Sequence record: PQ330092 | DNA length: 64,000 bases | Strand: one strand, 5' to 3' | From: Escherichia phage JP4 | Shown here: in pieces, positions 14,417 through 14,427 of the stretch | Layout: each line of letters begins with the position of its first letter | Numbering within the stretch: position 1 is the first letter of the stretch | Program-made: the position numbers and the translations under genes | The notes under the pieces: generated by a model | Databases searched by the model: none | Seen by the model: only the letters and a program-made list of their open reading frames with translations | Told to the model about the DNA's origin: nothing

Positions 14417-14427
14417 TGTGATATAAT
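14417..14427 (+). promoter_or_regulatory. Extended -10 promoter element TGTGATATAAT
   Basis: Recurring motif (also 26761-26769, 50161-50171, 29830-29838, 10818-10826). Confidence 0.5.

Follow-up and report, generated by a model that had tools for sequence, protein, structure and literature searches.

The extended -10 (TGn) promoters of Escherichia coli and the TRTG '-16 region' of Bacillus promoters are textbook elements, and the middle promoters of phage T4 join a MotA box to a sigma70 -10 element that is used through sigma appropriation by AsiA and MotA. We analysed an element of this kind that recurs as TGTGATATAAT, or as its nine-base core TGATATAAT, in a 64,000-nucleotide (nt) stretch of Escherichia phage JP4 (record PQ330092; the whole stretch is called the window below), where it is very probably a pre-late promoter signal. 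TGTGATATAAT has the full extended consensus, T(-17), R(-16), T(-15), G(-14), n, TATAAT, and a near-TATAAT hexamer with TG at -15/-14 is present in TGATATAAT at 10818, 14419, 26761, 29830, and 50163, in TGATACAAT at 26668, and in TGCTATAAT at 5500. The site at 14419 is of the classic form without a -35 element, whereas most of the phage sites keep a noncanonical element at the -35 position and are constrained at base -13.

The closest described promoters are those of Pectobacterium phage CBB, for which three classes have been predicted, namely (i) RpoD-like promoters with UP elements in the early region, (ii) 'divergent RpoD-like' promoters, and (iii) T4-like late promoters with ATAAATA (PMC5259590). 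The second class ('promoter 1'), which is known in CBB from MEME prediction only, reads TGAAACG...(A/G)TGNTATAAT, precedes DNA-synthesis genes and a gp55-like gene, and also occurs in Cronobacter phage GAP32 (PMC5259590, Buttimer et al. 2017). The complete sites in the window share with the CBB and GAP32 class a 7-nt box, 13 nt, and (A/G)TGNTATAAT (here TGGGACA-N13-TG(A/C)TATAAT at 10798-10826 and 29810-29838), as well as orthologous positions, and the genes associated with the class are again those for DNA synthesis and the gp55-like sigma. The promoters here differ from the CBB class in the box, which is TGGGACA rather than TGAAACG, and at base -13, which is A or C here and mostly G in CBB. 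The boxed class in the genus Asteriusvirus is the local version of the class predicted for CBB and GAP32. A description of it for Asteriusvirus was not found in the literature searched; the papers on phAPEC6, Sharanji, fEgEco12, UE-S1, ph0011, and RaK2 contain no promoter analyses, and a literature search for the exact motif returned unrelated matches only. Our preferred explanation, to which we assign a probability of roughly 45%, is that these are pre-late promoters whose box would be read by a phage-encoded determinant.

Sites of the element in the window

Bases 13000-17000 of the window are 99.8% identical to Escherichia phage SP27 and 97-99.7% identical to PBECO4, phAPEC6, 121Q, and G17, and by this measure the window belongs to a jumbo coliphage of the genus Asteriusvirus, whose relatives are myoviruses of ~350 kilobases (kb). 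Its gene map was curated against the annotated G17 and PBECO4 records, our own open reading frame (ORF) caller having mis-set some starts. Positions 1-32303 form a + strand block in which small genes of unknown function are mixed with enzyme genes (CCA-adding enzyme, nudix, glutaredoxin, dNMP kinase, N4 gp24-like ATPase, and ThyA) and structural genes (neck, sheath, tube, and head completion). Beyond 32303, tail-fibre and baseplate genes lie mainly on the - strand and a Lon-like protease gene lies on the + strand. Rfam and tRNA scans over the window gave no matches. A generic sigma70 promoter scan found 85 sites where 80.6 were expected and so gave no discrimination in this AT-rich DNA.

The core TGATATAAT occurs 10 times in the window against 2.13 copies expected from shuffles, a count reached in 0 of 100 shuffles, and all copies but one are on the + strand; TGTGATATAAT with at most one mismatch occurs 12 times (5.0 expected). 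Intergenic DNA, which makes up 4.9% of the window in the curated map, holds five of the ten TGATATAAT copies (binomial p ~6e-5), all five oriented toward the downstream gene, and 7-8 of the 15 TGNTATAAT copies (p ~1e-6 to 1e-7); the density of the motif is ~20-fold higher there. Because the motif can be read without a stop in only one of its three sense frames, we ran a control in which all 630 nine-mers of the same base composition were ranked by their intergenic copies. The motif was the sole top word both in the window (5 intergenic copies; mean 0.14, runner-up 2) and in the genome of PBECO4 (24 copies; mean 2.0, runner-up 12). A preliminary description of this DNA had named, as the pattern that would speak against a promoter, a similar frequency inside coding regions with no positional bias; what we found instead is an intergenic excess that is unique among the 630 words.

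All six coordinates listed in the preliminary description are exact (TGTGATATAAT at 14417-14427 and 50161-50171; TGATATAAT at 26761-26769, 29830-29838, and 10818-10826; TGATACAAT at 26668-26676), and one further member was added. The sites are as follows, with scores from a position weight matrix (PWM).

10798..10826, + strand: full boxed promoter of nudix/glutaredoxin; TGGGACA at 10798-10804, 13-nt spacer, TGATATAAT at 10818-10826; 34.8 bits
29810..29838, + strand: full boxed promoter of the operon running from a hypothetical gene through a DprA-like gene to ThyA; TGGGACA at 29810-29816, TGATATAAT at 29830-29838; 33.2 bits
50143..50171, + strand: weaker member, before the Lon-like ATP-dependent protease gene (ATG 50212); GTAGACA at 50143-50149, TGTGATATAAT at 50161-50171; 19.0 bits
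5480..5508, + strand: member missed by the preliminary description, a weaker call; TGGGAAA at 5480-5486, TGCTATAAT at 5500-5508; 14.5 bits
14417..14427, + strand: extended -10 element without a -35 box, TGTGATATAAT; 8 nt after the hairpin at 14382-14409 and 28 nt before ATG 14455
26649..26676, + strand: upstream copy of a tandem pair; A-tract, TTGACA at 26649-26654, 16-nt spacer including TG, TACAAT (TGATACAAT at 26668-26676)
26742..26769, + strand: downstream copy of the pair; A-tract, TTGACA at 26742-26747, 16-nt spacer including TG, TATAAT (TGATATAAT at 26761-26769)

When the sites are aligned on the -10 element, the upstream element lies exactly 16 nt before TATAAT. The preliminary description had treated its sites as one recurring class, which does not hold, as they differ upstream and carry a TGGGACA box, a TTGACA consensus (the pair), or no -35 element. 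Its distance of 30-80 base pairs to a gene start applies to four of the six sites, with 28, 35, 41, and 42 nt from the motif end to the start codon (14427 to 14455, 29838 to 29873, 50171 to 50212, and 10826 to the true nudix ATG at 10868, respectively), and not to 26761 (170 nt) or 26668 (263 nt). Similarly, a position just downstream of a terminator is found at two of the six, after the hairpins at 14382-14409 and 29776-29803, and not at the remaining four. The second of these terminators, directly 5' of the promoter at 29810..29838, was computed and is also annotated in G17. The protease site sits in a divergent intergenic region, and the identity of the protease comes from PBECO4 gp539. At the added site, ATG 5514, which is the mapped start of PBECO4 gp044, lies 5 nt past the -10 element TGCTATAAT, and a transcript from the 5500 site may be leaderless or nearly so.

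The site at 14419 precedes a gene for a hypothetical protein of 89 amino acids and then dNMP kinase, and its -35 position is taken up by the terminator stem. It is kept in G17, JNE01, and fEgEco12 while its flanks vary, and it is genus-specific, as CBB, XbC2, and Yen9-03 carry the late motif TATAAATA at this place. The tandem pair matches the sigma70 consensus at 11 of 12 positions plus TG in the upstream copy, which is kept in JNE01 and has 263 nt to the next gene, and at 12 of 12 plus TG in the downstream copy, which lies 170 nt from the ATPase ATG at 26939. Because 22 of 28 core positions are identical, the two are a tandem duplication; spacers at the other sites are unrelated to each other. 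Ordinary promoters for host sigma70 are the best reading of the sites at 26668 and 26761, which have the TTGACA consensus, and of 14419, which lacks a box.

The remaining exact copies of the motif lie in genes.

10474 (- strand), 15291 (15291..15299, + strand), 21019, 23121, and 33206: exact TGATATAAT inside coding sequence; PWM scores of at most 12.8 bits or below the threshold of the scan

None of these five copies has an upstream box, one sense frame of the motif is free of stops, and they are probably not promoters; the copy at 21019 is kept in JNE01 as coding sequence.

Promoter classes in PBECO4 and orthologous sites in relatives

Genome-wide scans were made on PBECO4 (348 kb, ~99.5% identical to the window), which we assembled from seven pieces. 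It contains 107 copies of TGNTATAAT, 45 of them intergenic (p ~3e-13) and 86 on the main gene strand. The intergenic copies show an information-rich T-G-G-G-A-C-A block at -35 to -29 and a preference for T-G at -17/-16, which accounts for the 'TGTG' of the preliminary description; the coding copies show neither. The genome-wide PWM search that had been suggested there, made with a matrix from 18 such boxed sites, yielded 30 matches scoring 18 bits or more; every one is on the gene strand, and 25 have an intergenic -10 element. Behind these matches lie the genes for ssb (two sites), primase, exonuclease, RNase H, DNA polymerase, topoisomerase II, the gp55-like late sigma gp530, the Lon-like protease, and several unknowns.

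Two other classes are distributed differently. Promoters of the form TTGACA-N16/17-TATAAT are concentrated in the small-ORF region of PBECO4 (120-220 kb), and the boxed class is located outside this cluster, before replication, nucleotide-metabolism, and late-sigma genes. ATAAATA is enriched 14.6-fold in PBECO4 upstream regions, and in the window, structural genes, among them those for neck, sheath, tube, and fibre, have (A/C)TAAATA 29-51 nt ahead of their starts.

13549, 15407, 18481, 19262, 22193, 22718, and 44492, + strand: late-type (A/C)TAAATA
34337, 41657, 44457, and 62546, - strand: late-type (A/C)TAAATA

The copy at 62546 also suggests that the gene for a protein of 3333 amino acids starts at 62509 and not at 62539. 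The late promoters of T4 (TATAAATA, read by gp55) are likewise AT-rich elements of -10 type in a T4-related genome; here, however, (A/C)TAAATA stands before neck, sheath, tube, and fibre genes and TGATATAAT before enzyme genes. Because the TGATATAAT class precedes nonstructural genes amid late operons and the late class is separate, a pre-late role is supported. We infer the timing from gene context, which gives the boxed class a middle-type pattern and makes early timing unlikely. The earlier proposal of a host-sigma70 early/middle promoter therefore stands as to the promoter and its middle-type gene context; its 'early' part is unlikely, and its 'host sigma70' part is unproven.

Syntenic regions were compared in G17, JNE01, fEgEco12, RaK2, CBB, XbC2, Yersinia phage fHe-Yen9-03, and Salmonella phage Munch. 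In the regions upstream of nudix and of the hypothetical-to-ThyA operon, a promoter is present in every genome compared. The site at 10818 is orthologous to the published CBB Porf_193 (TGAAACA...TGGTATAGT) and is kept in G17, JNE01, fEgEco12, Yen9-03, Munch, and XbC2 with unrelated spacers; the site at 29830 is orthologous to CBB Porf_218 and is present, with a lineage-specific box, in all seven or eight genomes compared. The resulting footprint, in which the -10 element and the 7-nt box are kept and the 13-nt spacer has diverged between genomes, is found in orthologous promoters that span five genera. The promoter features annotated in the fHe-Yen9-03 record look automatic and were not used as evidence. 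The boxes by lineage are listed below.

Asteriusvirus: TGGGACA (in JNE01, T/A-TGGACA)
Munch: TTGGGACA
CBB, XbC2, and Yen9: TG(A/G)AAC(G/A)
RaK2: TTGA(A)CA

The site orthologous to 26761 has TTGACA in RaK2 and the lineage box in Munch (TTGGGACA) and in CBB, Yen9-03, and XbC2 (TGAAAC). XbC2, a Xanthomonas phage, has the same box as its genus-mate CBB, a Pectobacterium phage. Base -13 is A or C in PBECO4 (G in 0 of 28 sites) and G in 10 of 18 CBB sites (Fisher p = 1e-5). In the distant jumbo relative Vibrio phage 2.275.O, TGTTATAAT precedes many genes (for example at 5260, 7900, 9271, 17465, 35515, and 37448 of sequence L022), with T always at -13 and no evident -35 box; the sigma factor of this phage is far closer to canonical sigma70 and retains the residues W-W-R-Q.

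Candidate readers of the box

In our preferred explanation, the element would be the TRTGnTATAAT part of promoters for the E. coli core RNA polymerase carrying a sigma70-family factor; it would be bound and melted as an extended -10 element, with transcripts starting ~7 nt downstream and leaders of 20-40 nt. The full form, consisting of TGGGACA (-35 to -29), 13 nt, and TG(A/C)TATAAT, would be the Asteriusvirus version of the 'divergent RpoD-like' class and would drive pre-late genes for nucleotide metabolism, replication, and the gp55-like late sigma. Within the window, this class would restart transcription of enzyme genes among late structural operons, often after a terminator. The reader of the box would be a phage-encoded determinant, most likely region 4 of the early-expressed sigma70-like gp356, in a cascade leading from host sigma70 at TTGACA, through the phage sigma at boxed promoters, to the gp55-like factor at (A/C)TAAATA.

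PBECO4 gp356, whose gene lies outside the window, has sigma70 regions 2, 3, and 4 and belongs to an operon behind a TTGACA promoter at PBECO4 197803; from this promoter type alone, we infer that it would be expressed before the genes that it serves. The PBECO4 motif search found no other enriched intergenic motif for gp356 to serve. At the positions aligned with sigma70 R584 and R588, the phages with the GGGACA box (PBECO4, fEgEco12, and Munch) have R and H, and those with the GAAACG box (CBB, XbC2, and Yen9) have K and S; this matching was done by eye, the alignments printed by HMMER ending at sigma70 residue 578-579. The Munch sigma is 45% identical to that of CBB and 38% identical to that of PBECO4, yet it has the R/H residues and the box of PBECO4. 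Across about three lineages, the box and base -13 track the helix 4.2 residues and the position of sigma70 H455. It is possible, at just under even odds, that the phage sigma reads the boxed promoters. More tentatively, we propose that TGGGACA-N13-TGNTATAAT sites are the targets of a sigma70-like factor common to all Rak2-like ('group 2.2') jumbo phages, with lineage-wise co-evolution of the box and base -13 with helix 4.2 and region 3.0, and with a cascade of three sigma factors. More than 90 sequence records carry this sigma.

As a separate observation, the sigma factors of the PBECO4 and fEgEco12 groups are 59% identical, and the sheath region that we compared is ~87% identical in DNA. Ecwhy_1 was considered as a natural relative without the sigma factor, Gp519 being given as absent in the fEgEco12 paper, and was rejected, as tblastn found a copy with 99.7% identity (MH791411.1 1665-2630).

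Several points weigh against a phage-encoded reader. The covariation of box and sigma is suggestive and comes from about three independent lineages. Every lineage has the exact host consensus, TATAAT, as its -10 hexamer, and the contact residues of gp356 are changed (W433S, W434S, R436Y, Q437M, T440Y, H455Y, and E458V); the orthologous sigmas differ at these positions, with CBB keeping R-Q and H455 and the Vibrio phage W-W-R-Q. A constant -10 element despite a changing region 2.4 is more simply explained by an unchanging host sigma70. Moreover, GGGACA matches TTGACA at four of six positions at a workable 16-nt spacing, and host sigma70 alone could therefore use the sites. The early promoters of T4 have a phage-specific consensus though they are read by host sigma70. 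Transcript, timing, or biochemical data for any Asteriusvirus were not found in the literature searched, and the genome-wide PBECO4 gene map comes from our own, imperfect ORF caller.

A second explanation, which we consider rather unlikely, is that the extended -10 element is recognised by host sigma70 and the box by a phage-encoded, DNA-binding activator, perhaps together with an anti-sigma factor directed at region 4, in the manner of MotA/AsiA of T4 or gp39 of Thermus phage P23-45. This would account for a constant host-type -10 element combined with a lineage-specific box, and it corresponds to T4 middle promoters in two ways, namely (i) a phage-specific box replaces the -35 element and (ii) the genes served are for replication, nucleotide metabolism, and the late sigma (gene 55 in T4). 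AsiA homologues have also been reported in some group 2 jumbo phages (PMC7824862), which we count in its favour. The box, however, is not a MotA box, as it reads TGGGACA and occupies -35 to -29, whereas the MotA box, (a/t)(a/t)TGCTT(t/c)A, is centred near -30. A phmmer search of PBECO4 six-frame ORFs with T4 AsiA and MotA sequences gave only E > 0.4, in what is a weak, single-sequence test of low sensitivity. An activator would also leave the lineage-specific -13 base unexplained and the conserved phage sigma70-like factor without a promoter class; T4 is not known to have a full sigma70-like factor such as this phage encodes.

The version of the preliminary description, in which the unmodified host sigma70 holoenzyme alone reads all sites, their strength comes from TGn and TATAAT, and TGGGACA is only a tolerated variant of the -35 element, is in our view unlikely. 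It draws on the perfect extended -10 consensus, on the match and spacing of GGGACA given above, on the lack of canonical -10 and TG contact residues in gp356, and on the ATPase promoter slot, which holds TTGACA in Asteriusvirus and RaK2 and a box in Munch and CBB. Against it speak the conservation of G at -34, -33, and -32 well over background and the TGAAACG box of CBB, XbC2, and Yen9, which matches TTGACA at only one or two of six positions and is yet equally conserved; as a sigma70 -35 element, the CBB box is implausible. Further, the box and base -13 vary by phage lineage, while the sigma70 of the various hosts is assumed to be conserved, and XbC2 retains the box of CBB in a Xanthomonas host.

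That the element is no promoter at all but a chance AT-rich word, a coding by-product, a repeat cassette, or a regulator site is highly improbable: five of the ten exact copies lie within genes, the pair at 26668 and 26761 is a duplication, and two sites are palindromic (TCACA-TTA-TGTGA at 14410-14422 and TGTGA-N8-TCACA at 26759-26776), but against this stand the intergenic density and unique rank of the word, the co-orientation of all intergenic copies with the downstream gene, the leader distances of 28-42 nt at four of the six listed sites, and the unrelated spacers, which argue against a repeat family. A CRP-like or other palindromic operator was rejected, as the palindrome is absent from most sites and orthologues; so was an origin in a repeat cassette, as only 26668/26761 is duplicated and the hairpin/promoter cassette seen in PBECO4 lies outside the window. 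That cassette, a repeated aaGGGTTGACTTCGGTCAGCCCTTTTTGCTATAAT at PBECO4 174090, 175880, 176804, and 187093 (sequence L005), has a terminator-like hairpin that holds the -35 element of the next promoter and resembles the mobile promoter-stem-loop cassettes of T4-type phages.

Leaders, the nudix start, and a transcription-unit map

Between the tandem promoters and the ATPase gene lies a conserved structure.

26832..26880, + strand: terminator-like hairpin with a U-rich tail

The fold of 26776-26882 has an energy of -19.8 kcal/mol (z = -2.8), and the pairing of the stem is kept by double changes (GGAACUG/CAGUUCC, GGACUG/CAGUCC, and GGCACUG/CAGUGCC) among RaK2, Munch, CBB, Yen9-03, and XbC2. The order of promoter, short leader, and hairpin is common to JNE01, RaK2, Munch, CBB, XbC2, and Yen9-03, with compensatory changes across five genera. 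These leaders were folded singly and their stems compared by eye, the MAFFT/RNAalifold alignment being poor; the hairpin at 26832-26880 has no Rfam match. It would terminate transcripts at a length of ~100 nt (from 26761) or ~200 nt (from 26668), or it would attenuate. Since both promoters are followed by this conserved hairpin, their product would be a short RNA or an attenuated leader and not simply the ATPase mRNA, and the region 26776-26900 may be a phage small RNA or an attenuator. A conserved ACGGATTGG and another TATAAT (26893-26898) come after the hairpin.

A short conserved element also follows the nudix promoter.

10832..10839, + strand: conserved leader start (G)GTATCTGA, 6-13 nt past the -10 element

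Of the eight relatives compared, all but RaK2 have it after the orthologous promoter, and the surrounding leader is not conserved. Another candidate, TGGTATAAT at 10882..10890 on the + strand, was ruled out as a second nudix promoter, as it encodes C-G-I-I of the ancestral nudix N-terminus: the nudix proteins of relatives begin MRY(T/S)CGIIFYRDGQ, and in the window the same peptide is read from ATG 10868 in another reading frame.

In all Asteriusvirus genomes examined, a +1 frame change splits the nudix gene itself (window 10868-10940, with the shift near 10928-10935; JNE01 L011 ~11849-11915; fEgEco12 L019 ~868-935; G17; and PBECO4). Translation from ATG 10868 gives MRYSCGIIFYRDGQILIGHTT, which agrees with RaK2, CBB, Yen9, and Munch; an additional C (ACA ACA C GGA CAG) then puts the remainder, GQNHWDLPKGK..., in the +1 frame, and the zero frame ends nine codons on. 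No ribosome-binding site accompanies the annotated start (GTG 10899 or ATG 10902), and between-genome substitutions in the N-terminal frame are synonymous or conservative. The split is a candidate for a programmed +1 frameshift at a rare CGG codon or for a conserved truncation.

As the preliminary description had proposed, the element can be used to define transcription units, and it marks the starts of nudix/glutaredoxin, of the hypothetical gene with dNMP kinase, of the operon from the DprA-like gene to ThyA, and of the Lon-like protease. Taken together with (A/C)TAAATA and the terminators, the motif provides a workable map of transcription units for 350-kb phages in which more than 80% of the genes lack a known function, and this map separates pre-late enzyme genes from the late structural operons that surround them. 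If host sigma70 reads everything, the finding is a good promoter annotation only. The lineage-specific box and the -13 base are a concrete lead to what the sigma70-like factor, the defining protein of this group of jumbo phages, does in infection.

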